Source of the DNA: an uncultured bacterium
GTDB taxonomy: Bacteria; Lernaellota; Lernaellaia; Lernaellales; Lernaellaceae
Length of the DNA stretch: 11,724 nucleotides
Direction of reading: 5' to 3'
NCBI GenBank assembly: GCA_964534375.1
Contig: CAZHPN010000181.1
Location: forward strand, 1 to 11,724
The notes below the pieces were generated by a model that saw only the letters and a program-made list of their open reading frames with translations, did not search any database and was not told the DNA's origin. The position numbers and the translations under genes are program-made. Shown piece by piece: positions 1-11,724 of this stretch; within the stretch, counting starts at the first letter, position 1; every line of letters starts with the position of its first letter.

Positions 1-1
1 C

Positions 2-172
2 GCCGCGACCAAAGAGGCCCGCTTGGACCACCGCGGCGCGTACAACATGTTCGTCAAGGCATTTCGAGCCGCGCGCGACCTGTTTTGGCGGCAGCCGCCT
101 GCGGCCGTTTACCAATTTCCGCCCGGTTGCTACCTGCCGCCGTTCGTCCCGTTGCCGCCCGCGCCTGATTAA
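2..172 (+). CDS. 3' end of a gene entering from the left edge; resembles the C-terminus of RAYT-like (IS200-related, Y1 HUH) tyrosine transposases
   Basis: Frame 2 is open from the edge to TAA at 170-172 and reads AATKEARLDHRGAYNMFVKAFRAARDLFWRQPPAAVYQFPPGCYLPPFVPLPPAPD. The pattern AATKEAR..AY..FV.AFR.A....FPPGC..P matches my recollection of C-termini of RAYT-like transposases in Acidobacteriota/Myxococcota. The HUH catalytic part is outside the window, so the family call is tentative. Confidence 0.5.
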   Translation, partial: AATKEARLDHRGAYNMFVKAFRAARDLFWRQPPAAVYQFPPGCYLPPFVPLPPAPD

Positions 173-400
173 GCGCATCGCAAGCGCCCGCCGAATCTTC
201 CGAAACATCTGCAACAAAGGCGAAAAACCATCCGACGCACAAATCGCCGGTAAATTACGGTGCGTTAAACTGCGTTTCCAGCTTTGTAGGAGGCGGAAAA
301 TTCACGAAACGCGACATCCGGCCGGGCAATCTGCGACCAAACGCTCCGGCCGATGGCAGATGCTCCGACCCGAGCCGCCACGCGCCGAAAAAGTGGCTGG

Positions 401-489
401 CACCATTGCCCGGCACCATTGCCCGGCAGCACCATTGCCCGGGCAGCACCATTGCCCGGGCAGCACCATTGCCCGGCACCATTGCCCGG
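401..489. repeat. Tandem array of six identical 13-mers CACCATTGCCCGG
   Basis: Copies start at 401, 414, 430, 447, 464 and 477, with spacers of 0, CAG, GCAG, GCAG and 0. The array ends 10 bp from the kinase stop codon. Confidence 0.95.
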
Positions 490-499
490 GAGAGTACGC

Positions 500-2266
500 T
501 TACCCGCGCGGCAGGAAGATCGAGAAGACGCTGCCCTGATCGACGACGCTGTGGACCGCGACCCGGCCGCCGTGCGCGTTGACGATGTGCTTGACGATCG
601 CCAGGCCCAGGCCGGTGCCGCCGAGGTTCCGGCTGCGCGCTTTGTCCACGCGATAGAAGCGCTCGAAAATGCGGGACAAATGCTCGGCCGGGATGCCGCA
701 GCCGCGGTCGGTCACGCGAATGGCGACTTCCTCGCCGGCCGGCGTCGCCTCGACCGTCACCGTGTCGCCGGGCGTGCTGTATTTCACCGCGTTGTCGATC
801 AGGTTGACGATCGCCTGTTCGAGGAGAGCGGAGTTGATCGGCGCGTTCAGCCCGTCGTCGCAAATCATTTCGACCTTGATGTTCTTCGCGGCGGCCTTGC
901 TCGCGCAGGTCAGGATGGCGGAATCGAGCGGCTCCTTGAGCGGGCCGCGCGTCAGCGGAATCTCCCGGCGCTCCGATTCCTGTTCCACGCGCGACAGGCT
1001 CAGCAGGTCCTCGATGATCGAGTTCAGGCGGTCGGCGTGGCGCGCGATGATCGCCAGAAACCGCTGCGCGTTCTCCGGATCGTTGATCGCGCCCTCGCGC
1101 AACGTTTCGACAAAGCCCTTGATCGAGGTGATCGGCGTTTTCAGTTCGTGCGAGACGTTGGCGACGAAATCGCGCCGCACGACCTCCAGCCGTTTGATCT
1201 GCGAAATGTCGTGCAGCACGATCAACGCCGCCGCGACCTGGCCGTCCGCGTCGCGCAACGGCGCGCCGTAGGCCTGCAGGAAGCGGTCCTGGCCGTCGCG
1301 AATCGTCAGTTGGTCGATCAGCGGCTCGGCGGCGGCGAGCGTGCGGCGCACGAACCGCAGCAGGTCGGGATTGCGCGTCGCCGCCAGCAGGCTGCGGCCG
1401 GCCGGGTCTTCCGGTTCGGACAGCAGCAGCCGGCGGCCCGCGCCATTCAGCCGGATGATCGTTTCCTCGGCGTCGACGATCAGCACCGCCTCGATCATGC
1501 TCGACAACACGGCTTCCAATTCTTCGCGCTGGCTGGTGATCGTGCGGATGCGCTCGTCCAACCCGGCCGCCATTTGGTTCATCGCCTCCGCGAGATTCTC
1601 GACCTCCGTCGGGCCGTGCACCCGCAGCCGATGGCCGAGTTCGCCGCGGGCGAAGCGATCCGCGCCGCGCGTGATTTCCGCGACCGGGCGCTCGATCCGC
1701 CGCGCGGCCAGCAGGCTGACCAGGGCGGCGAGGGCGGCGATCGCGAAGCAGCCCAGCGCGATCCGCCAATAACCGGCGCGCAGCGTCGAGGCGACGTTGC
1801 GCAGCGGCAGGCTCAGGCGCACCACGCCCGCCAGCCGGCCGTGGTCGTACGCCGGAACGGCGACGTACAGCATGTCGCGTTTCAGGGTGTAGCTGTAGCG
1901 CCGCGCCACGCCCACCGCGCCGGTAGCGGCGGCCTGGAACTCGGGCCGGTCGGCGTGATTTTCCATCGTGCGGAACGCCTGGTCCGAGTCGCCGATGACG
2001 CGGCCGTCGGGCAGGATCAAGGTCATGCGCGTCTTGATGTCGGCGGCGATCGAGCGGCACAAGGCGTCCGCCTGGCCGTCGGGCGTTTCGGCAAATTGGG
2101 TCGCCAGCCGCGGAATGATCAACCGCGCGCGCGCCGTCAGATCCTCGGCGACGGTTTCCGACTCCAATTCCTGCAGCGTGCGCGAGGCGTACCACGCCAC
2201 CGCGGCCATCGCCACAACGAGGATCAGGAAATGCGAAAAAAACAATCGCCACAGCAATTTGCGCAT
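500..2266 (-). CDS. phoR: PhoR-like sensor histidine kinase (TM-periplasmic-TM-HAMP-PAS-HisKA-HATPase), 588 aa
   Basis: H-box RRDFVANVSHELKTPITSIKGFVETL, N-box NLIDNAVKYS, G1 DRGCGIP, F-box IFERFYRVDKARSR, G2 GGTGLGLAIVKH; periplasmic DGRVIGDS..MENHADRPE motif; two hydrophobic segments; GAGGGAAG upstream of the ATG at 2266. Confidence 0.85.
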   Translation of the reverse strand: MRKLLWRLFFSHFLILVVAMAAVAWYASRTLQELESETVAEDLTARARLIIPRLATQFAETPDGQADALCRSIAADIKTRMTLILPDGRVIGDSDQAFRTMENHADRPEFQAAATGAVGVARRYSYTLKRDMLYVAVPAYDHGRLAGVVRLSLPLRNVASTLRAGYWRIALGCFAIAALAALVSLLAARRIERPVAEITRGADRFARGELGHRLRVHGPTEVENLAEAMNQMAAGLDERIRTITSQREELEAVLSSMIEAVLIVDAEETIIRLNGAGRRLLLSEPEDPAGRSLLAATRNPDLLRFVRRTLAAAEPLIDQLTIRDGQDRFLQAYGAPLRDADGQVAAALIVLHDISQIKRLEVVRRDFVANVSHELKTPITSIKGFVETLREGAINDPENAQRFLAIIARHADRLNSIIEDLLSLSRVEQESERREIPLTRGPLKEPLDSAILTCASKAAAKNIKVEMICDDGLNAPINSALLEQAIVNLIDNAVKYSTPGDTVTVEATPAGEEVAIRVTDRGCGIPAEHLSRIFERFYRVDKARSRNLGGTGLGLAIVKHIVNAHGGRVAVHSVVDQGSVFSIFLPRG

Positions 2267-2608
2267 TGCGCCGCTTCCCTCGTCCGCCGGCCGCCACGGA
2301 AACAGCCAAACTGCGGCCCGTTTATTTGCCGAAGATTATGCTTTTGTTAGAAATATGCAAAAGCCCCGATCTTGGATAAGTTGGAAGACCCGTGCCCGAA
2401 GTGGCTGGCGCCAGCGGCCGGTCGCCCCGACGGCCGGTTGGATCGCGCCGATCCGGCGCGCGGCCGAACCATCGGATCAGCCGCCGGTCGCCTGAGCCGA
2501 GGTCCGGTTTTCGGCCCCCGACAAACAGGTTTTGCCCGATGTCGCACAACGCGCCATCTGGTTACGTTGGTGTTCAACGAACTGCCTTCGCAGGGGCCGG
2601 GAGATAAC

Positions 2609-3481
2609 ATGGTCGGCGCGCAGACGATATTGCTTCACGGGGCCACGGACAGGGTCGGTCGCGAACTTGCACTCAGCCTGGCGCGGAAGGGCCGTTCGGT
2701 TTTCGCCGTTGGTCCGCATCGCAAGCCGCTGGAGGAATTGCGCCGCGAGGCGCGCGGTTTGCCGTTGAAAACCATCCAGACGAATCCGTCGGACCCGGCG
2801 TCCGTCGCGCGGTTGAAACAGCGGATGAACCGCGAGACGCAGAACCTGGGGCCGGACGTGCTGGTCAACAATTCCGGTTGCGATGCTTGCGGCGAAGCGT
2901 CGGGGCCGGCCGGGCTGCGCGGCATGTGCGCGCAACTGGAACAGGACATTCAGGGCATGGTCGCCTTGATCGGGGCGTTCGCGCCGCAAATGCGGACGCG
3001 CGGCTGGGGCCGCATCGTCAACATCTGCCCGACCACGGCCGGCGCGCGGAACCTGCCGCGCATCGTCGGCCGCCTGTGCGGCGACGGGGCCAAAGCCTTT
3101 TCGCTGGCAATGGCGAAGGAACTGGCGCCGTCCGGCGTCCAGGTCGTGTACGTCGAGCCCGTGCCGGTCCGGCCGCGAGACGGCGACGCCGTCGCGCCGT
3201 TGCGCGGCAACGGCCCCGGCAACGTCGAACGCCGCGTTTACCCGCGCGAGGAGGCGTCGACGGCCGTCCAACTGTTCGAACCCGGCGTGCTCGTGCGCGC
3301 GGTCGAAATGGCCATTCGCACGAAAAACCCGCCCGGGCTGTGGCCGGCGATCCGCGGCGACCGCGTGTGGGCGGCCGTTTCCGCGGCGATCGGCGACCGC
3401 TGGGCCGACCAACTGGTGGCCTTGTTGTCGCACCTTCCCGCCGCCCGCGGCCGTTTCGTGGCGTCGGCGAAGAGCCGCTAA
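2609..3481 (+). CDS. Atypical short-chain dehydrogenase/reductase (SDR)-fold protein, 290 aa, catalytic residues absent
   Basis: ATG at 2609 preceded by GGGAG. ILLHGATDRVGRELA (degenerate TGxxxGxG), DVLVNNSG (NNAG-like), GWGRIVNI and ELAPSGVQVVYVEP are SDR landmarks. No YxxxK occurs anywhere in the protein. Confidence 0.8.
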   Translation: MVGAQTILLHGATDRVGRELALSLARKGRSVFAVGPHRKPLEELRREARGLPLKTIQTNPSDPASVARLKQRMNRETQNLGPDVLVNNSGCDACGEASGPAGLRGMCAQLEQDIQGMVALIGAFAPQMRTRGWGRIVNICPTTAGARNLPRIVGRLCGDGAKAFSLAMAKELAPSGVQVVYVEPVPVRPRDGDAVAPLRGNGPGNVERRVYPREEASTAVQLFEPGVLVRAVEMAIRTKNPPGLWPAIRGDRVWAAVSAAIGDRWADQLVALLSHLPAARGRFVASAKSR

Positions 3482-3511
3482 AACGCTTTACGAGTTTCGG
3501 GCTCCGAGCGC

Positions 3512-3524
3512 AATCAATCTCTTG
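3512..3524 (+). promoter_or_regulatory. IHF consensus site next to the putative origin
   Basis: AATCAA-TCTC-TTG matches WATCAANNNNTTR exactly; 18 bp left of the large inverted repeat. Confidence 0.45.
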
Positions 3525-3542
3525 GGTCGGGTTCGACCGCCG

Positions 3543-3624
3543 GTGACTGGTTGTGACTGGTTTGCCGGTGCTCCTATAGGTTTGCTTCTTGGGAACTTCC
3601 GGCAAACCGGTCACAACCAGTCAC
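3543..3624. repeat. 26-bp inverted repeat built from tandem 10-bp units; putative iteron replication origin
   Basis: Left arm GTGACTGGTTGTGACTGGTTTGCCGG (3543-3568), right arm CCGGCAAACCGGTCACAACCAGTCAC (3599-3624), 25/26 complementary. The 30-nt spacer contains the palindrome CCTATAGG. It lies 14 bp downstream of the primase stop. The repeat is directly seen; the origin role is inferred. Confidence 0.75.
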
Positions 3625-3638
3625 TTTGACGGCCGGAA

Positions 3639-5831
3639 TCAATCGTCCGCCCGCGATTTCAGGGCCAGCCCGACGCGATGATAGCCGTCGTTTCTCTTCA
3701 CTTTATGGAATCCCCGTTCCGTCAGGCAGCGCCCGAAGGCGGTATTGGACATCGGGTGTTTGACTCCCTGCCGGTCGCTGTAGGCGGCGTACGCATTGAA
3801 CAGAGCTTTCGCCGGCGCGCGGCAATCGGCGCCGCGATCGCAGCATTCGCTAAGGAAATCCGCCAGGCGGTCGAACTCCTCTTGATATTCGCCGGTCGCC
3901 GATTTCACGGCCGCCGAGTCCGCCAGGCCCTGCCGCTGCCAGAGGAGACAGCCCTCGACCAGCCAGTTCAGAATGCCCGAGCGCTCGGCGCGCAGCTTCT
4001 CGGTCAACAGCTTGTCGCGTTCGGCGTCGGGGATCGTGACGTTGAACGGCACGAGGCGCAGCCGCCGCCAGAGCCCTTCGTCCTGCCCGGACACCATCGG
4101 CGTGTGGTTGGTGGCCATGACGAACTTGTGCGTCGGTCGGAAGGTCCAGAAGTTCTCGTGCATCCGCCGCGTGCTGATTTCGTCGCCGCCGGTCAACTGC
4201 TTGACGAGCGCTTCGGAAAGGCGGTCGCCATGGTCGATTTCGGTCGCGACGGCCAGCCGCGTGCGGTACAGATCGGCCGTCGCCGTCGGGTGCGCCTCGT
4301 GGTGTTGGTCCAGCAGCAAACCGGGCGCCGTTTGCCGGGCGTAGCCGCCGAACACGCCCTTGACCGTCTCCAGCAGCACGGATTTGCCGTTGGCGCCCGT
4401 GCCGTAGAAGATCGCCAGCACGTGCTCCCGCACCTCGCCGGACAGGCCGTAGCCGAGAAAGCGCTGCACGTAGTCGATCAACGCGCGGTCGCCGGCGAAG
4501 ATGCGGTCGAGGAAGTCGTCCCATAGCGGCCGACGCGCGTACGGATCGAACGCGGCGCCGGCCAGTTGCGAGAGGCGGCGGGCCGGATCGTGCGGCGCCA
4601 ACTCGCCGGTGCGCAAATCCAGGATGCCGTTTTGCACGTTGAGCAGGAACGGATCGGCGTCGAGGTCCTCGGGGTCGAGTTGCATCTCCGCTTCGGCTTC
4701 GGTCACCCGCAACATCGAGTCCAGGCGCTGCGCGCTCTCGGACCGCATCGCGTGTTTCCACAAGGCGGCGCGCTCTTCCTTGGACGCGGCGGCGCGGGTC
4801 TCCTCGTCGATCCGGCGAACGGTCTGCTTGGCCATCGCGCGCACGTGGACCGCCTGTTCGTCGCGCTTCCAGCGCCGGCCGTCCCAGGTCAGCCAGGCCC
4901 GCCACGCCGGCACGTAGCGCGCTTCCTGCCGATGCTGCGCGGCAAAGCGTTCGGCATTGCCCGCGTCGGTCAAGGGCGCGATCGCCGGCGCCGGCGGCCC
5001 CGGCGGCGTGGCGGCGGCGAGCGCGGCCTGCCAGGCGGCGGCGAAACCCGCGGGGCCGGTTTTCTGGAGCAGGTCGTTCGGGTCCTTGACGCCGTCGAGC
5101 CGCACGATGCGCACCTCGCCGATCCAGCCGGAGCAGATGTGGCGCGCGACCTCCGCGGCGAATTGCGCGCCGGCGGCGTCCGGTTCCTGCACGATGTACA
5201 CGAGCGGGATGCCGCCCAGGAAATCGGGCGACAGCGTTTTGGTCATCGTCGCGCCCGGCGCGCCCAGGGCGGGGCAGCCGAAATGCCAGAGCGTCCAGCA
5301 ATCGCTTTCGCCCTCGACGAGGGTCAACGAGCCGGCCGCCCGGGCGGCCGCGAGGCGATCGAGGCCGTAGGCGATCACGCCCTCGCCCGGCGCCCACGAA
5401 CTGCCGTCGCCGGCCTTCAAGGCGCTGCGCCGCCGCTCGCGGAACGTCGCGCCGCATTCGTCGCGGTACGGAATCACCACGCCGTAACGCGGGTCGTCGC
5501 GCAGGCCCAGCGAACGCAGGAAATCCGCCGGCAGGCATTTATCCTCCGCGAGCGCGGCGACGGTCAGCGGCGGGCCGGCCGGCGTGCGGCGCCGCCGCTG
5601 CTCGCGGCCCGGCGGCGGCGCGGGAAAGAGGTCTTTCATCGACAGGCTCAGCGCGGTGACGATGTCCGGCGCCGCGCACCCGGCGAAACACTTCAGCAGA
5701 ATGCGGCCGTCGCGGCCCTCGCACACCGACAGCGACGCTTGCCGATCGTCGTGCGCCGGGCAGCGCGCCTGCCAGCCGTGGCTGTTTTTTCGCGGCGAAT
5801 CCAAACGGCTCAGGAACTCGGAGACGTGCAT
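3639..5831 (-). CDS. Phage/plasmid primase-helicase, P4/D5 family (Zn finger + TOPRIM + D5_N + SF3 helicase), 730 aa
   Basis: CPAHDD..LLKCFAGC Zn ligands; TOPRIM LVEGESD, EPDAAG and KDPND; D5_N LTDAGNAERF..WLTWDGRRW; Walker A GTGANGKS; VKQLTGGD, motif C MATN, GLWRR; strong SD AAAGGAG upstream of the ATG at 5831. Confidence 0.92.
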   Translation of the reverse strand: MHVSEFLSRLDSPRKNSHGWQARCPAHDDRQASLSVCEGRDGRILLKCFAGCAAPDIVTALSLSMKDLFPAPPPGREQRRRRTPAGPPLTVAALAEDKCLPADFLRSLGLRDDPRYGVVIPYRDECGATFRERRRSALKAGDGSSWAPGEGVIAYGLDRLAAARAAGSLTLVEGESDCWTLWHFGCPALGAPGATMTKTLSPDFLGGIPLVYIVQEPDAAGAQFAAEVARHICSGWIGEVRIVRLDGVKDPNDLLQKTGPAGFAAAWQAALAAATPPGPPAPAIAPLTDAGNAERFAAQHRQEARYVPAWRAWLTWDGRRWKRDEQAVHVRAMAKQTVRRIDEETRAAASKEERAALWKHAMRSESAQRLDSMLRVTEAEAEMQLDPEDLDADPFLLNVQNGILDLRTGELAPHDPARRLSQLAGAAFDPYARRPLWDDFLDRIFAGDRALIDYVQRFLGYGLSGEVREHVLAIFYGTGANGKSVLLETVKGVFGGYARQTAPGLLLDQHHEAHPTATADLYRTRLAVATEIDHGDRLSEALVKQLTGGDEISTRRMHENFWTFRPTHKFVMATNHTPMVSGQDEGLWRRLRLVPFNVTIPDAERDKLLTEKLRAERSGILNWLVEGCLLWQRQGLADSAAVKSATGEYQEEFDRLADFLSECCDRGADCRAPAKALFNAYAAYSDRQGVKHPMSNTAFGRCLTERGFHKVKRNDGYHRVGLALKSRADD

Positions 5832-5967
5832 CGGTCGCTCCTTTCGTCAAAGCTCACGCATCGGCCGGAAGAAACTGGTCCGTGTCTTCCGTTGCAGCCC
5901 CCAGTCGCGCTCGAACGACTAATTCAGGCTGCCCGATTCACTTTGTGCACGTGGCCACGTGGGAACT

Positions 5968-6011
5968 ATTTTTGCCAGATGCATGTACAAAAGTCAAACT
6001 CTTTTTTGTAC
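5968..6011 (-). promoter_or_regulatory. Putative sigma70 promoter of the primase gene, overlapped by an operator-like inverted repeat
   Basis: Minus strand TTGACT (5997-5992), 18-nt spacer, AAAAAT (5973-5968) in an AT-rich patch. GTACAAAA (5985-5992)-N11-TTTTGTAC (6004-6011) straddles the -35. Confidence 0.45.
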
Positions 6012-6039
6012 TATTCTCCAAGTATTTTTCATTGCAGTC

Positions 6040-6052
6040 CAACTAGTTGATA
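6040..6052 (-). promoter_or_regulatory. IHF consensus site upstream of the primase promoter
   Basis: CAA-CTAG-TTGATA matches YAANNNNTTGATW exactly. A two-mismatch copy TAACTAGCTGAAA lies at 6148-6160. Confidence 0.45.
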
Positions 6053-6218
6053 ATTCGCCACTTCTTGCGCTCTGCGCCCGGACCAAAAAATGGGGCGCGT
6101 TGGCGCACTTTCGGCGAGTTTGCGGCAATGAACGACGGTTTGTGGCCTAACTAGCTGAAATGCAGCGCATTTTTTTCGCCATGCGGCGCCGCCGCGGGTC
6201 GAACGAAAACGTCGGCGC

Positions 6219-7257
6219 TTACGGCGGCGTTCCCCAGACGGCGAAAAGTTCGGGCGTGCCGTTCGGAGCCGTCATCGAACGCCAAGAGGCGCCGTCGTAA
6301 TGCAGGATCACGGCGTTTTCGCCCACCGCGAACACGTCGGAAGCCGAATTCCCCCAGACGCCGTAAATAAACGAGTCTCCGCCGGCCTGCGTCGGCGTCC
6401 ATGACGTCCCTTGGTATTGCACGATCTCGCCGTTGTAGGGGTTGGTGGAATATTCGATGCCCACCGCGAAAATGTCGGTGTTTGACGCCCCCCAGATGCC
6501 GGCGAGTTGCATCAAGTCCTCCATCGTCGTCGACCAGGACGACCCGTTGTAATGGAGGATTTCCGCGTCGGGCGGGGTGTTATAATCGCGGCCCAAAACG
6601 TACAAATCGGATGACGTTCCCCAGATGCTTGCGAGCGGCATCACCGTTTCGGTGGCCATCGACGTCCAGGCCGCGCCGTCGTAATGCAGCACGACGCCGT
6701 TGGGCAGAGGCGCGGCGTTGTCGTTGCCCACGGCGTACACGTCGGCAAACGACGATCCCCAAACGCCGTAGAGGTTCGCGACTCCGCTCGGGACCGTCAT
6801 CGGCGTCCACGACGATCCGTCGTATTGCAGAATCAAGCCAGCGTAGGAGCCCCCCGTGCCGGTCGAGCCCACAGCAAATACGTTGGCAGGCGACGCTCCC
6901 CAGACCGCGGCCAGGTGCTCGGCGGCGGTTCCGGTCGTTTCCACATCCCACGATGTTCCGTTGAAAAACAGCGTCGTGTCGGCGTCGCCCACCGCGAACA
7001 CACTGGAAGCCGACGTTCCCCAGATGCCGTAAATGCTCACGCTGGTTCCGCTGGCCATCGTCTGCCAGGACGCGCCGTCGTAGTGCAGAATCGCGCCTTG
7101 GTCGCCCACCGCGAACACGTCGGACGATAAGTCATCGTCGTTGTCGTCGTCATTGTCGTCGTTATCGTTGTCGTCGTTGTCGTCATCCGCAGGCGATCGC
7201 GCCGGCCAGCACCGCCGTCGTCAACAGGAGAAACAGAAACCAACTGCTGCGATTCAT
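6219..7257 (-). pseudogene. Asp/Asn-rich seven-repeat beta-propeller-like lipoprotein, frameshifted after the lipobox (repeat-coding frame 7187-6219 intact)
   Basis: GGAGGT SD plus ATG at 7257 gives MNRSSWFLFLLLTTAVLAGAIACG then TGA (7185-7183). The +1 frame from 7187 reads 19 D/N codons, then LSSDVFAVG.., continuous with track ORF 6219-7118, which holds seven DVFAVG..ILHYDG..W..VWG repeats. Confidence 0.8.
7131..7187 (-). repeat. GAC/GAT/AAC/AAT codon tract (19 Asp/Asn)
   Basis: Reads DDDNDDNDNDDNDDDNDDD on the minus strand. Confidence 0.9.
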
Positions 7258-7431
7258 CGCGACACCTCCGAAAGTCAGCCTGTTCCGAACCTGGAACATC
7301 ACGGAAACCGATTCCCTTTCCATATAAGTAGGCGCCGCGTTTCTCGCAGTCAAGCGAACCGACCTTTGGACGCGTGTTTAACCCGGCCCCACGCTCATAC
7401 GTGCGGAAACGCCCGGCGGCCCGAAGTGGGA

Positions 7432-7460
7432 TTGACGGCGCCAGTTCGAAGCCGGACAAT
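7432..7460 (+). promoter_or_regulatory. Putative sigma70 promoter for the propeller-TlpA lipoprotein
   Basis: TTGACG (7432-7437), 17-nt spacer, GACAAT (7455-7460); about 65 bp upstream of the ATG at 7525. Confidence 0.5.
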
Positions 7461-7524
7461 CGCCGTGCGCAACAGGGATCGAACAAAGAAAATGCTGCGG
7501 CAGCCGGTCCTTCAGGAGGAGCCG

Positions 7525-9192
7525 ATGGAGAGTTCTCGCTTGTCCTGGGCTTTCTTTTTGATCGCCCTCGCTGCCATTATTTTTTTATTCTCGTGCTCGT
7601 CCGGCAGCGGCAACGGCCTTAGCGCCGCCCGCGTCGCGGACGACGACGACGCCAGCCCTGCCGACGACGACAACGACGCAACGGACGACGATTCCTCCGC
7701 AGATGACGACGACAACGACAACGACGACTTCACGCCCCACTGGTCGGTGATCGCGACCGGGCAAGCCGGCTATCTGTATTCTGGCGTTTGGGGCAGCTCC
7801 GCTTCCGACGTGTACGTCGTCGGCAGCGAGGGGTTGATTCTGCACTACGATGGCGCGACGTGGTCGACGACGACGGTCTCAACGACTTATTGGCTGCATA
7901 CTGTCTGGGGAACTTCCTCCTCGGACGTCTTTGCGACCGGCAACATCTCGGCCGCCAATCCGCTCGGCGTAATTTTGCACTACGACGGCCACGCTTGGTC
8001 GGACATGACCAGCGAGACGGCCTCGACGTGGCCCGGACTTTGGGGAACCTCCGGTTCGGATGTTTTCGCGGCCGGCGGACCCAACCTCAACCTGGGCGTC
8101 ATCATGCACTACGATGGTTTTTCGTGGTCCACGATCGACGGCGACGCGGCGGCCTATATGTATGCCATCTGGGGCGCTTCGGACACGGAGATGTTTGCCG
8201 CCGGCCCCATGATCCTTTACGGCGACGGCTCCTCGTGGACCTGGATGAACACGCCCGTCGCGGGCGAGTACAACGGCATTTGGGGAACCTCGGCGTCGGA
8301 TGTGTTCGCCGTGGGTTCCGCGGTGAACAGCGAGCAACAACAAACCGGCGCCGTCTTGCATTACGACGGCGTCGCGTGGTCGGCCACGGACTCGGGGTGG
8401 ACGGAGTCTTGGTTGTGGGGCGTTTGGGGCAGTTCGGGGGCGGATGTTTTCGCCGTGGGCGACGCCGCGACGATCCTGCACTACGACGGCGCCGTGTGGT
8501 CGCCGATGGACGCCGGCGGCGCCACGACGACGACGACGCTGGCCGCCGTTTGGGGCAGTTCCTTCGACAACGTGTACGCCGTCGGATATGACCGGGGGGA
8601 CGGCTCCCACGGCGTGATTTTGCATTACGGCGACGACGACGATGACAATGACGACAACGACGATGACAATGATGACGACAATGACGACAACGACGACAAT
8701 GACGACGACGCCACGCCGCCCCTCGGTTATGACGACGGCGATACGATGCCGGATTTCACCTTGATCTCGAACAGCGGCTCGCCGGTTTCGTTGTCCGCTT
8801 ACCGGGGCCGGATCGTGCTGCTCGATTCGTCGGCGATGTGGTGCCTCTATTGCCGTTACGAAACGCCGTTGCTCGAAACGCAGTTTTACCAGCCTTATCA
8901 GAATCAAGGTCCGGGCTTGATGGTGCTGCAACTGCTTGGGCAGGACTACAACTACGCCACGCCGACGGTCGCGGAACTGCAAGCTTGGGCGACCACGTAT
9001 GGCCTCGCCTTCCCCGTGCTGGCCGATCCGAACTTCCAGGTCGGCGGCCAGATCAACGACGGCGGCATCCCGTTCTTCTGGGTTCTCGACGCAAATATGG
9101 TGATCGTCGCGAAGTCGGACGACGGCGGCAATTATCACGATTTGTCGTATTTCGGCCCGATCGTGCGCCAGTTGCTCGGGCTCGGCGAATAA
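7525..9192 (+). CDS. Lipoprotein: Asp-rich linker, seven-repeat beta-propeller-like domain, Asp/Asn linker, TlpA/redoxin-like thioredoxin domain; 555 aa
   Basis: AGGAGG SD plus ATG at 7525; signal peptide MESSRLSWAFFLIALAAIIFLFS-C; seven WG(S/T)S.SDVFAVG..ILHYDG..W repeats; C-terminal GDTMPDFTL..VSLSAYRGRIVLLDSSAMWCLYC (CxxC at 8842-8853), FPVLAD and GIP. Confidence 0.88.
   Translation: MESSRLSWAFFLIALAAIIFLFSCSSGSGNGLSAARVADDDDASPADDDNDATDDDSSADDDDNDNDDFTPHWSVIATGQAGYLYSGVWGSSASDVYVVGSEGLILHYDGATWSTTTVSTTYWLHTVWGTSSSDVFATGNISAANPLGVILHYDGHAWSDMTSETASTWPGLWGTSGSDVFAAGGPNLNLGVIMHYDGFSWSTIDGDAAAYMYAIWGASDTEMFAAGPMILYGDGSSWTWMNTPVAGEYNGIWGTSASDVFAVGSAVNSEQQQTGAVLHYDGVAWSATDSGWTESWLWGVWGSSGADVFAVGDAATILHYDGAVWSPMDAGGATTTTTLAAVWGSSFDNVYAVGYDRGDGSHGVILHYGDDDDDNDDNDDDNDDDNDDNDDNDDDATPPLGYDDGDTMPDFTLISNSGSPVSLSAYRGRIVLLDSSAMWCLYCRYETPLLETQFYQPYQNQGPGLMVLQLLGQDYNYATPTVAELQAWATTYGLAFPVLADPNFQVGGQINDGGIPFFWVLDANMVIVAKSDDGGNYHDLSYFGPIVRQLLGLGE
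8632..8709 (+). repeat. 26-codon Asp/Asn tract linking the propeller and thioredoxin-like domains
   Basis: Reads DDDDDNDDNDDDNDDDNDDNDDNDDD. A second, interrupted Asp-rich tract lies at 7639-7728. Confidence 0.9.
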
Positions 9193-9356
9193 TCGGCGCG
9201 CGCCGCGATCCTTGCGGATTACGGAGAAATTCGACGGCCTTCCCGCCGCCAAAGCCCCGCGGCGCTGGACAAAGAAGAGAAGTTCGCGTCAAATCGACGG
9301 GCCGCGCCGGCGGCGGTCAGGCGCTCCGGCCGAGAATCTGCGCGTGAGTGGCAGCG

Positions 9357-11495
9357 ATGGCGAAGTCCGACATTTCTCCGCCGGTGGCCGTGACGGGAAA
9401 GCGCCTCGGCGCGGACCGTGAAGCCCTGTTTTTGGCGGGCGCGGCGCTCGCGGTTTTCGTCGTCTACGCCTTTCGGATCAGCCATTATTCCGGCATCGAC
9501 GCCGAACAAGTGCGCAACGGCCAACTGACGCTGGGTTTTCTCGACGGCTTCACCGCGTCGCCGCTTTATTATCTTTACGGACGCAGCCACGGCCCGCTGT
9601 TTTACGGCCTGGCGCTGACGCCGGTTTATGATCTGTTCGGCTCGAGTTACCTCTGGATCAAATTGCTCGGCTTTTTGTTTTTCGCGGGCGGCGTCGCGGT
9701 CTGGGCGCTGCTGCTGCGCCGCTGCTGGGGCTTCGCGCCGGCCTTGCTCTTTCTGCTGTGGTTGGCGCTGCCGCCGCCGTTTTTCGAAGAGGTTTCGCAC
9801 GTCACCTGCGGCAACCATATGGAAAGCGTCTTCTTCGCCGGCGTATCGCTGTACTTTTTTCTCAGCCTCGATATGTACGGCACGTCGTTCGCCAAATGGG
9901 CGCGGTTCGGACTGTGGGTCGGCTTCGCGACATTTTTCTGCATGCAAATCGCGGCCGTCGCCGCGGCGTTGGCGGCGGCGATGGTCTGGCGGTGGCGCAA
10001 AGCCGGGTTGCAAAAACTGCTCTGGCCGGTCGCGCCGGCGTTTCTGCTCGCCTTTTCGCCGCACTGGATCTTCCGCGTTTATTGGCCGCTGTCGACCGAC
10101 TACATCGCCTTCTCGACCGACGCGCTCGCCCGTTGGCGCAACCTGTTTTTCGACTTGCTGCCGCTGCTGCCCGGATACGGCCGCCGCGTCGGGCCGGCGC
10201 TCTCGGCGGCGTTGATGATCGCGGCCGCGGCCGGGCTCGCGCTCGCGTTGCGCGACACCGGCAAAACCGCAGCCGAACGCGGCGCGCTGCCGAAGCAGGT
10301 GTGGCTGGTGCGCGTCCTGGCGCTGTATCTGCTCGCCTATTTCGCCGCCGTCGGCTTCAGCACGATGCCCTTCGGCGCGATCACGCATTTTTACGATTTG
10401 CGTTATCTGCTGCCGCCGTTCCCCGTTTTCGTTGCGTTCGCCTGCTACTTGGTCAGCCGTCTGCCGAAGGCCGCCGCGGCCGCGATCCTGATGGCGTTCG
10501 CCGCGGCGGGCGGGGCCGCGCTGGCGCTGGACCTGCCGCACGATCTCGCCCATTGGCGCGCGGGTTGGCAGGAACTGCGGCAGACCCGCGGCGACGATTA
10601 CGAGAACTTCATCAATCTCAACTTGCCGCCCAGTTGGAACGGGAACTTGGACAAGGCGTTGAAGTCCGTGGCGCGTCTGCCCGGCGGCTGGCAGGAAGAG
10701 GGTTACGCGTGCGCCGGCCGGGAATTGGGCGGCGCCGCGCTCGATCGGTTGCGCGACGGCGCGCCCGGGCTCGCCCCGGCGGCGCGAACGGCCTTGTTTC
10801 GCGGTCTGGGCATGGCGGCGGCCCACTGGATCGGCTCGGACTCGCCGGAGTTGGCGCAGTTGAACGGACCCGGATTGACTGTGTTGGAGAACGCGACCGA
10901 CGCGGAGGCCGACGCCTTTGCGCAGGGGTTCGGCTATCAGAATATATTCGAATGGTCGCCGCGCGGTTTTCTGACGACGATCGACAAGGTCGAAACGCTC
11001 GACGCGGACGGCCAACTTGCGGCCTGGTATGCGGCCTATCCGCCGGCGGCCCCGCGCCGATTGGCCTGCGCCGGCGTGATTCAGCGGCTGGGCCGGCGCG
11101 ATCCGGCGAAAAATCTCGCCGCGTTCATGCAGGGCGTGGGCCGTTGGTGCGGCTTTTACTTCCGCGCGGACCAGACGAAGCACGTGCAGCTTTATCCGAA
11201 AATCTGGGGAAAATACCTCGAAATCGCGCCGACTGACGAGGCGACCGCAGCGATGGAACGCGGTCTCGCCGAGGGGCAGGCGCTTTATTTGCTGTCGTTC
11301 CGCAACCGCTTTGCCGACGCGCCGCCGCTGCGGAACCTGGCGTTGACGCGCGCGGAACTGGCGCGCCGCGGCGTCACGTTGCGGCAAGTTGCAACGCATC
11401 CGGACGAATACGTCTTGGTGAAAGAGAAAAACTACTACGCGCGAACGCTGCCGCCCGGCGCGGACGCGGCTGCGGGGCCTGCGTCAGGAAAGTAG
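9357..11495 (+). CDS. Multi-pass membrane protein, probable GT-C glycosyltransferase (ArnT/PMT-like) with a soluble C-terminal domain
   Basis: First TM followed by acidic DAE, then YYLYGRSHGPLFYGLALTPVYDLFGSSYLWIKL (typical of the GT-C first loop); about 10 further hydrophobic segments; RYLLP motif; hydrophilic helical last ~320 aa. Start is uncertain: ATG 9357 or GTG 9348. Confidence 0.65.
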   Translation: MAKSDISPPVAVTGKRLGADREALFLAGAALAVFVVYAFRISHYSGIDAEQVRNGQLTLGFLDGFTASPLYYLYGRSHGPLFYGLALTPVYDLFGSSYLWIKLLGFLFFAGGVAVWALLLRRCWGFAPALLFLLWLALPPPFFEEVSHVTCGNHMESVFFAGVSLYFFLSLDMYGTSFAKWARFGLWVGFATFFCMQIAAVAAALAAAMVWRWRKAGLQKLLWPVAPAFLLAFSPHWIFRVYWPLSTDYIAFSTDALARWRNLFFDLLPLLPGYGRRVGPALSAALMIAAAAGLALALRDTGKTAAERGALPKQVWLVRVLALYLLAYFAAVGFSTMPFGAITHFYDLRYLLPPFPVFVAFACYLVSRLPKAAAAAILMAFAAAGGAALALDLPHDLAHWRAGWQELRQTRGDDYENFINLNLPPSWNGNLDKALKSVARLPGGWQEEGYACAGRELGGAALDRLRDGAPGLAPAARTALFRGLGMAAAHWIGSDSPELAQLNGPGLTVLENATDAEADAFAQGFGYQNIFEWSPRGFLTTIDKVETLDADGQLAAWYAAYPPAAPRRLACAGVIQRLGRRDPAKNLAAFMQGVGRWCGFYFRADQTKHVQLYPKIWGKYLEIAPTDEATAAMERGLAEGQALYLLSFRNRFADAPPLRNLALTRAELARRGVTLRQVATHPDEYVLVKEKNYYARTLPPGADAAAGPASGK

Positions 11496-11724
11496 GTTTC
11501 CGTGAATTCCCAACGGAATCGAGGCCGGTGTGCAGTATGCAGCGCTGCAATCAAGATTTTTTCTTCCAAATTCGCGGAATCACGCCTTCGCAAATAAGAC
11601 CTCGGGGCATTGCGCGACCCCGCCCCGGCCACGCTCGAAGCGTGGCCCGCCCCTCCCCGCGACGGGGCGTAGGCTTTAGGATTAAGAGCGGCGATGCTTC
11701 AAATGGCGCAGAATTGCGCTCTTT

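Follow-up and report, generated by a model that had tools for sequence, protein, structure and literature searches.

A P4-type primase-helicase gene and its putative iteron origin in a contig of an uncultured Lernaellaceae bacterium

The module and its features

In a stretch of DNA from an uncultured bacterium of the Lernaellaceae (GenBank assembly GCA_964534375.1, contig CAZHPN010000181.1, positions 1 to 11,724), we encountered an uninterrupted gene for a 730-residue primase-helicase that is followed directly by an iteron-bearing inverted repeat. The whole stretch of 11,724 bases (GC 0.65) is referred to here as the window. The cassette is very probably a replication module of the type formed by the alpha gene of P4 and the PriRep genes of Staphylococcus aureus pathogenicity islands (SaPIs), accompanied by its cognate iteron site. 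With less assurance, we consider it probable that the cassette represents, in intact form, the replication module of a mobile element whose other parts have been lost or lie off the contig; such an element could be, for example, an integrative island, a small prophage or a phage satellite. The module itself is ordinary biology of a known kind, represented by P4 alpha with its cis required region for replication (crr) and by SaPI PriRep with its ori, although its setting is unusually bare.

An earlier note on this DNA had described an uninterrupted Zn-TOPRIM-SF3 gene with a Shine-Dalgarno sequence, an iteron-like inverted repeat just 3' of the gene, matches to the consensus of integration host factor (IHF) on both flanks, an AT-rich patch upstream and neighbours of cellular type. 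All of these were recovered, the IHF sites as pattern matches only. Its description of the whole as an origin plus primase-helicase cassette is borne out by the same layout at 11 of 14 loci compared, in P4 crr and in SaPI origins. The features of the cassette are as follows, in window coordinates.

3512-3524 (+): match to the IHF consensus, AATCAATCTCTTG, predicted from the pattern only
3543-3624 (no strand): putative origin, with two iterons GTGACTGGTT (3543-3562), a 42-bp spacer and two inverted iterons (3605-3624)
3639-5831 (-): primase-helicase gene, 730 amino acids
5838-5843 (-): Shine-Dalgarno sequence AAGGAG, 6 nt 5' of the ATG
5950-6070 (no strand): AT-rich patch of GC 0.32-0.42, which holds the second IHF match at 6040-6052 (-)
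5968-5997 (-): promoter-like site (TTGACT, 18 nt, AAAAAT), about 135 nt 5' of the ATG
5985-6011 (no strand): palindrome GTACAAAA-N11-TTTTGTAC, overlapping the -35 hexamer
6085-6108 (-): terminator-like hairpin with a T-run, which ends the lipoprotein transcript and forms the upstream limit of the cassette

The primase-helicase protein

The open reading frame (ORF) at 3639-5831 (-) encodes a protein whose N-terminus (MHVSEFL...) is common to the homologues P0002 and P0027, and its start codon is therefore right. The protein matches the NCBIfam family TIGR01613 ('phage/plasmid primase, P4 family'; 'primase_Cterm') with 307.9 bits against a cut-off of 108.7, and the Pfam family DUF5906 with 48.4 bits against a cut-off of 27.6. 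Profile support for the N-terminal part is weak (Toprim_3, 18.9 bits against a cut-off of 27.2; dnaG domain, 34 bits, under its cut-off), but two primase families, PHROG 47 and 239, match residues 3-273. The domains and motifs recognised are listed by residue.

C24, H27, C48, C52: CHC2-type zinc finger, invariant in 31 aligned homologues
E173-G-E-S-D177: Toprim acidic motif, invariant in the 31 homologues except for S176, which is nearly invariant (at least 90%)
293-445: D5_N (Pfam, 1.2e-35, 123.4 bits against a cut-off of 22.4)
G477-S484: Walker A motif of the superfamily 3 (SF3) ATPase, G-x-G-x-N-G-K-S, with G477, G479, N481, G482 and K483 invariant in the 31 homologues and S484 conserved in at least 90%
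653-713: Pox_D5 C-terminal domain (Pfam)

An AlphaFold2 model of the 730-residue protein has a mean pLDDT of 89.7, and its best Foldseek matches in the PDB are primase-helicases of the D5 type, namely C962R of African swine fever virus, E5 of monkeypox virus and D5 of vaccinia virus. A sequence match was also obtained to PDB 7ola ('DNA primase'; E 1.4e-6, residues 386-697), which we take to be PriRep5. The last 60 residues are modelled as helices followed by a beta-hairpin, a predicted fold that would be compatible with a winged helix. Constraint on the gene was gauged by the retention of conserved columns across homologues: of the 145 columns on which at least 90% of 29 other homologues agree, the protein retains 134, and P0002, a relative with 77% identity, has 7 of the 11 changes as well. 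The changes look like lineage features and not like decay. The protein is thus predicted to be an intact P4-family primase and SF3 helicase with a C-terminal DNA-binding domain. PADLOC assigned it to no defence system, the sole match being a weak DnaG-like one to a DRT accessory model.

The two halves of the protein have different relatives. Residues 1-270 are 83.6% identical to P0027, 84.3% to P0002 and 77.0% to P0056, and the C-terminal part is 73.2% identical to P0002; P0027 and P0056 are proteins of 784-788 amino acids that carry an unrelated P-loop domain (PHROG 10537, 29234, 19930) as their C-terminal part. Most of the loci fetched from GTDB by an N-terminal pattern match the Zn-finger/Toprim module only. 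Since the N-terminal module is almost equally close to P0027 and P0002, these alignments indicate that the primase module is shuffled between helicase types, by an exchange of modules within a mobile gene pool.

An inverted repeat directly downstream of the gene

The inverted repeat begins 14 nt past the stop codon of the primase-helicase gene. Its arms (3543-3568 and 3599-3624) are each 26 nt long, 96% complementary and 30 nt apart, and each is composed of two tandem 10-mers, GTGACYGGTT, with a 10-bp period, so that the iterons are arranged as two plus two in inverted orientation. No other inverted repeat in the window has arms of 16 nt or longer when up to one mismatch and a loop of up to 100 nt are allowed. 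All four copies of GTGACYGGTT in the window (at most one mismatch) lie inside 3543-3624, and no second iteron cluster was found in the window, even at two mismatches. The spacer has a GC content of 0.55, and its central 30 nt one of 0.43, against 0.65 for the window, which is lower yet not truly AT-rich. Because the same layout follows homologous genes and is also that of P4 crr and of SaPI origins, the repeat is best read as the putative cognate origin of the primase-helicase, beyond a mere terminator.

Iteron layout at homologous loci

A blind scan was run on 14 loci totalling 174,414 nt, namely the window, eight loci from GTDB, four plasmids and a phage. It sought 8-mers repeated in tandem at a spacing of 8-12 nt, with no more than one mismatch, that have an inverted copy no further than 150 nt away, and clusters of four or more seeds were kept. 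The GTDB loci had been found with N-terminal patterns, and the relatives are distant (at most 50% identity in the N-terminal part and at most 44% over the full length). Two further loci were omitted from the count, namely L067, a partial homologue with no D5_N match, which has an eight-seed cluster 969 nt after the ORF, and L072, in which the ORF breaks within the homology on a 3.4-kb contig. Among 24 strong tandem-plus-inverted clusters, 12 lie within 320 nt past the end of the homology, at 11 of the 14 loci, where length alone would predict 0.62; this expectation is generous, since repeats are more frequent between genes than in coding DNA. One of the 12 sits inside the SDR gene of the window and is regarded as noise. 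By inspection, the zone of the same size before the gene start contains none of the 24. The strictest version of the scan (9-mers, two plus two in tandem) yielded just the window, L003 and a single upstream site in L008.

Directly 3' of the gene, the relatives have tandem iterons of about 10 bp and, after a spacer of 40-90 bp, these iterons again in inverted orientation. The words observed are listed by locus.

L003: TGTCACGCGA twice, about 90 bp, then GCGTGACA twice
L017: TGACAGGTTT, then AAACCTGTCA twice
L001: three GGTGACRC words (GGTGACRCA), then inverted GTCACC copies
L014: four words resembling ATGACNGGAA, then four inverted GTCAT copies
L008: GGACCGGAAT three times, then inverted CCGGTCC copies
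L023: repeats of GTTAACGA, then inverted copies
L077: TAGTGGC twice, then GCCACT twice
L006: TGACGC repeats, then inverted GTCA copies

The plasmid pSINAC02 likewise has a nine-seed iteron cluster 71 nt past the gene, and the layout spans contigs of Bacillota, Elusimicrobia, Deltaproteobacteria, Planctomycetota and Actinomycetota as well as plasmids. The iteron word of the window itself gave five single chance matches and no cluster in the 80 loci fetched. From these comparisons the iteron words appear to be lineage-specific and the layout constant. L001 and L006 are alike both in their C-terminal domains and in their iterons, a pairing that a protein and its binding site would be expected to show.

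In three loci (L008, 12240-12373; L014, 11290-11395; L077, 2430-2520) the longest ORF reads through the iteron cluster. The resulting C-terminal tail is probably an annotation artefact; otherwise the origin would lie inside coding sequence.

Flanking sites and limits of the cassette

The IHF consensus WATCAANNNNTTR has exactly two matches in the window, 3512-3524 (+) and 6040-6052 (-), against 0.07 expected. Both lie in intergenic DNA of lower GC content, so that shuffles of the whole window overstate their significance, and the consensus used is that of E. coli. An 11-nt word, CGCAATCAATC (3509-3519), recurs as CGGAATCAATC (3634-3644), so that one copy stands on either side of the iterons; the copy at 3634-3644 overlaps the stop codon, and both hold the AATCAA core of the IHF consensus. 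Between 3300 and 6400, two promoter-like sites were found against 0.1 expected. The palindrome at 5985-6011 looks like an operator.

The cassette is tightly delimited, extending from about 3500 to 6085. The SDR gene stops 61 nt from the iterons, and the terminator of the lipoprotein gene lies about 90 nt from the promoter.

Neighbouring genes

The gene map of the window is built from coding-like ORFs (high GC content at third codon positions, GC3) together with family matches. The earlier note had called the neighbours cellular-type (SDR-like, lipoproteins); the genes around the cassette are those of a histidine kinase, an SDR, two lipoproteins and a GT-C-like membrane protein.

500-2266 (-): PhoR/PnpS-like sensor histidine kinase (coding-like ORF and family match)
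ending at 3481 (+): SDR oxidoreductase (coding-like ORF and family match)
6219-7257 (-): lipoprotein gene, adjoining the cassette
7522-9192 (+): lipoprotein fused to a TlpA/AhpC-like thioredoxin domain, a divergent paralogue of the 6219-7257 lipoprotein
9348-11495 (+): GT-C-like (PMT_2-like) multi-pass membrane protein, 715 amino acids

The histidine kinase scores 395.5 bits against the PnpS cut-off of 400, with no response-regulator gene beside it within the window. Just 3' of the kinase gene, at 399-490, there is a tandem array of about six copies of GCACCATTGCCCGG with a period of 14-17.

The lipoprotein gene beside the cassette is frameshifted at 7183-7257 (-). It has a good Shine-Dalgarno sequence and ATG (7257), a signal peptide and a lipobox (…LAGAIAC); the frame from this ATG meets a stop at 7185-7183, and the poly-Asp/Asn linker and the repeats, of beta-propeller-like type, are encoded in a different frame that extends to 6219. 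A genuine pseudogene, an error of assembly or slippage could each account for the break. Both paralogous lipoproteins (6219-7220 (-) and 7522-9192 (+)) possess repeats of about 40 residues (WG.S..DVFAVG…LHYDG..W) and long Asp/Asn linkers, and the repeat region of neither reaches the cut-off of any Pfam family. The membrane protein at 9348-11495 gave no Pfam or NCBIfam match; its nearest Atlas clusters are PMT_2/ArnT-like GT-C glycosyltransferases, which are commonest in Planctomycetota.

Mobile element or resident gene

Homologues of the gene are found largely in the company of mobile elements. Of ten GTDB loci with a homologue of the helicase part, six have a recombinase or structural genes of phages no more than 10 kb away: genes for phage structure or packaging are present in L001, L006, L014 and L023, a tyrosine integrase lies 657 nt after the gene in L003 and 2 kb before it in L014, and a serine recombinase is encoded in L008. 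The contigs of L017, L072 and L077 are shorter than 6 kb, and L067 has only cellular-type genes on the single side available. Among plasmid records, homologues occur on a 12.5-kb circle that includes a capsid gene, an integrase-bearing circle of 8.4 kb, a 39-kb Singulisphaera plasmid and a 54-kb C. perfringens plasmid, and full-length homologues are also present in Arthrobacter phages. The bare setting without an integrase appears unusual among the loci examined, a small and distant sample (25-49% identity).

The best foreign homologues, searched for among the 8,000 candidates sharing most words, are 77% identical for the primase-helicase (P0002, on a 115-kb contig), 65% for the SDR and 37% for the membrane protein, and no homologue of a neighbour was found on a contig of the size of that of P0002 among these candidates. 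The identity gap and the differing contigs speak weakly against conserved synteny. The same gap, together with the N-terminal module held in common with a different helicase type, favours mobility over long domestication, as weak and indirect evidence. An intact replication module of a mobile element, with its other parts lost or off the contig, is close to the remnant of a decayed satellite that the earlier note had offered as one possibility.

Several observations weigh against this interpretation. No family of integrases, recombinases, excisionases, repressors, capsid, terminase or partition proteins was detected in the 56 translated ORFs of the window (E at most 0.01), and in a comparison of the two flanks for att-like direct repeats within the window the longest common word is 9 nt. 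Att sites of a larger element, if any, would be located outside the window. A tblastn search with 1,880 ORFs from 15 related loci gave 57 matches in the primase gene and elsewhere only three marginal ones. There is no direct trace of a larger element in the window. Compositional foreignness of the primase-helicase gene was rejected: its GC3 of 0.88 equals the 0.85-0.89 of its neighbours, and the gene is host-adapted in composition. The tight limits of the cassette are unusual for random decay. Three of the 14 loci scanned, pPL62-4 (L081), a Thermaerobacter circle (L082) and the Arthrobacter phage Cyan (L083), have no strong cluster after the gene, and the scan is imperfect, as P4 crr was detected in it at two plus two seeds, below the threshold for a strong cluster. 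Furthermore, P4 needs a second site, ori, besides crr, and the window has no second cluster.

The contig measures only about 11.9 kb, or at most 16.5 kb in another assembly, so that an integrase a few kb off is possible; the earlier statement that there is no integrase stands within the window and does not carry beyond it. Other searches of the window were also negative. No tRNA gene was found in the 11.7 kb, and no integration site of the tRNA type is visible there, nor did an Rfam scan of the same DNA find any family. PHROGs gave nothing for five small ORFs in or beside the two intergenic regions flanking the gene. In 5832-6218, where a regulator of the AlpA/excisionase type was sought, there is no coding-like small ORF and no family match, the ORF at 5959-6150 having no coding signature.

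Alternative explanations

The principal rival to a mobile-element module, which we regard as unlikely, is that the contig derives from a plasmid or other secondary replicon, with the cassette as its basic replicon. This would account for the missing integrase and for the ordinary cargo genes on both sides, and the assembly offers short contigs only. Homologues of the helicase part are carried by circular plasmids, namely Singulisphaera pSINAC02 (39 kb, 44.9%), Planctomyces pPL62-4 (12.5 kb) and the 1.1-Mb megaplasmid of Gemmatirosa, and the iteron cluster downstream of the pSINAC02 gene supports the same explanation. The case of pRN1 (PMC4234260) shows that an entire replicon can consist of such a gene and a downstream element, together with the promoter and a gene for a small repressor. 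However, no partition, relaxase or toxin-antitoxin family was found among the ORFs of the window, and the neighbours (PhoR/PnpS-like kinase, SDR, GT-C glycosyltransferase) look chromosomal. The plasmid homologues, moreover, lack the Toprim N-terminus, their matches covering residues 287-729 only.

It is less probable again, and in our view rather improbable, that the iterons after the gene act, as in P4, as an enhancer in cis, the true origin having been lost and the cassette being an inert though intact remnant. In P4, replication starts not at crr, the site directly after alpha, but at a distinct ori, which the record NC_001609.1 places 2.1 kb upstream of alpha with more type 1 repeats; the single iteron cluster of the window fits such a loss. 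In SaPIs, by contrast, the site directly after rep is the sole origin, according to PMC9371898, and the constraint on the gene (134 of 145 conserved columns kept, with 7 of 11 changes common to the 77% homologue) would be unexpected in an inert remnant.

We attach very little probability to a third explanation, which the earlier note had raised in outline and which finds no support here. In this view, an integrase-less unit of gene and origin is kept in the chromosome as a switchable local origin that, when derepressed, would fire in situ and over-replicate the surrounding lipoprotein and glycosyltransferase genes, in the manner of Bartonella run-off replication. The cassette is bare, intact and tightly delimited, with a regulated-looking promoter; its GC3 matches that of the host genes and no excision functions were seen in the window, all of which is consistent with retention by the host. 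Set against this, no gene-transfer-agent or packaging genes were found within the window, whereas Bartonella ror has brrA-G and is coupled to capsid genes. There is also no sign of conserved synteny, the best foreign homologues of the neighbours being far more diverged than that of the primase, and the adjacent lipoprotein gene is frameshifted. If it were true, such an origin could serve gene dosage or allow packaging by a transducing particle or a helper phage, and the cassette would amount to a minimal counterpart, with one gene and in a different phylum, of the run-off replication of Bartonella.

Finally, we hold it very doubtful that the inverted repeat is a bidirectional terminator and the gene an orphan with no cis site: the repeat does lie between the convergent SDR and primase genes and folds strongly as RNA (-80 kcal/mol, z-score -9.3), but its stem of 26 bp, with a loop of 30 nt and without a T-run, escaped the terminator scan, and the tandem 10-bp periodicity within the arms, together with the recurrence of the layout, with spacers of 40-90 bp, after homologues whose downstream neighbour is co-oriented, makes a plain terminator insufficient.

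Proposed mode of action and implications

As a replication module, the cassette is complete and apparently functional. Its own promoter, with the operator-like palindrome, would drive the gene for a fused primase, SF3 helicase and initiator. By analogy with the protein families involved, the C-terminal domain, which resembles a winged helix, would bind the four 10-bp iterons; one hexamer would load itself at each inverted iteron pair and the 42-bp spacer would melt. The Toprim domain would then prime, and host polymerases would extend in both directions. What remains in view is a bare unit of gene and origin between an SDR gene and a lipoprotein gene.

The constant layout across distant bacteria offers a simple rule for annotating origins beside Toprim-D5_N-SF3 genes. 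The 2.7-kb unit of promoter, gene and origin, from a lineage of high GC content, is also a candidate minimal replicon for vectors in bacteria for which plasmid tools are lacking.

Comparison with known systems

A close parallel is P4, whose alpha protein, like the TIGR01613 member described here, combines a Toprim primase, D5_N, an SF3 helicase and a C-terminal DNA-binding domain in one polypeptide. In the P4 record crr is annotated after alpha with tandem and inverted 'ori type 1 repeats', and in both systems short iterons in tandem and inverted orientation come directly after the stop codon, with a gap of 46 nt in P4 and 14 nt here. In contrast, the P4 iterons are 8-mers (core TGTTCAC in crr), whereas those described here are the 10-mer GTGACYGGTT, and P4 carries an integrase, attP, cI, epsilon and sid/delta/psu, none of which is present in the window.

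In SaPIs, as described in PMC9371898, the ori lies immediately downstream of rep with at least two opposed iterons on each side of an AT-rich region, the iterons are bound by a C-terminal winged helix, and PriRep5 is a fused primase-helicase; a preprint (bioRxiv 10.64898/2026.10.17.759575) gives the same account of SaPI origins. The gene studied here resembles PriRep5 of SaPI5, as described there, in the fusion of a primase to an SF3 helicase-initiator, for which a self-loading helicase is the model, and the position of the origin directly 3' of the gene, with at least two opposed iterons on each side, is also similar; the centre between them is here lower in GC content without being truly AT-rich. 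The SaPI iterons are, however, 5-6 nt long and present in 6-12 copies over about 300 bp, unlike the four 10-mers in 82 bp seen here. SaPIs also carry an integrase, the Stl repressor and packaging genes, and their host belongs to a different phylum.

A further parallel is pRN1, whose minimal replicon of 3.1 kb comprises, according to PMC4234260, a promoter, the orf56/orf904 operon and a downstream structured element, similar elements being described there after phage replication genes. The likeness extends to the size of about 3 kb and to the order of promoter, genes for a repressor and a primase-SF3 helicase-winged-helix protein, and a cis element directly 3' of orf904. pRN1 differs in being an archaeal plasmid with a small repressor gene (orf56), in its primase, which is an archaeo-eukaryotic prim-pol and not of the Toprim type, and in its element, a 100-nt stem-loop lacking iterons. 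Bartonella ror is described in bioRxiv 10.1101/2024.11.20.624540 as an origin and brrA-G cluster coupled to capsid genes. It shares with the host-retained explanation considered above a phage-derived origin kept in the chromosome without excision, and differs by brrA-G and gene-transfer-agent capsid genes, which have no counterpart in the window.

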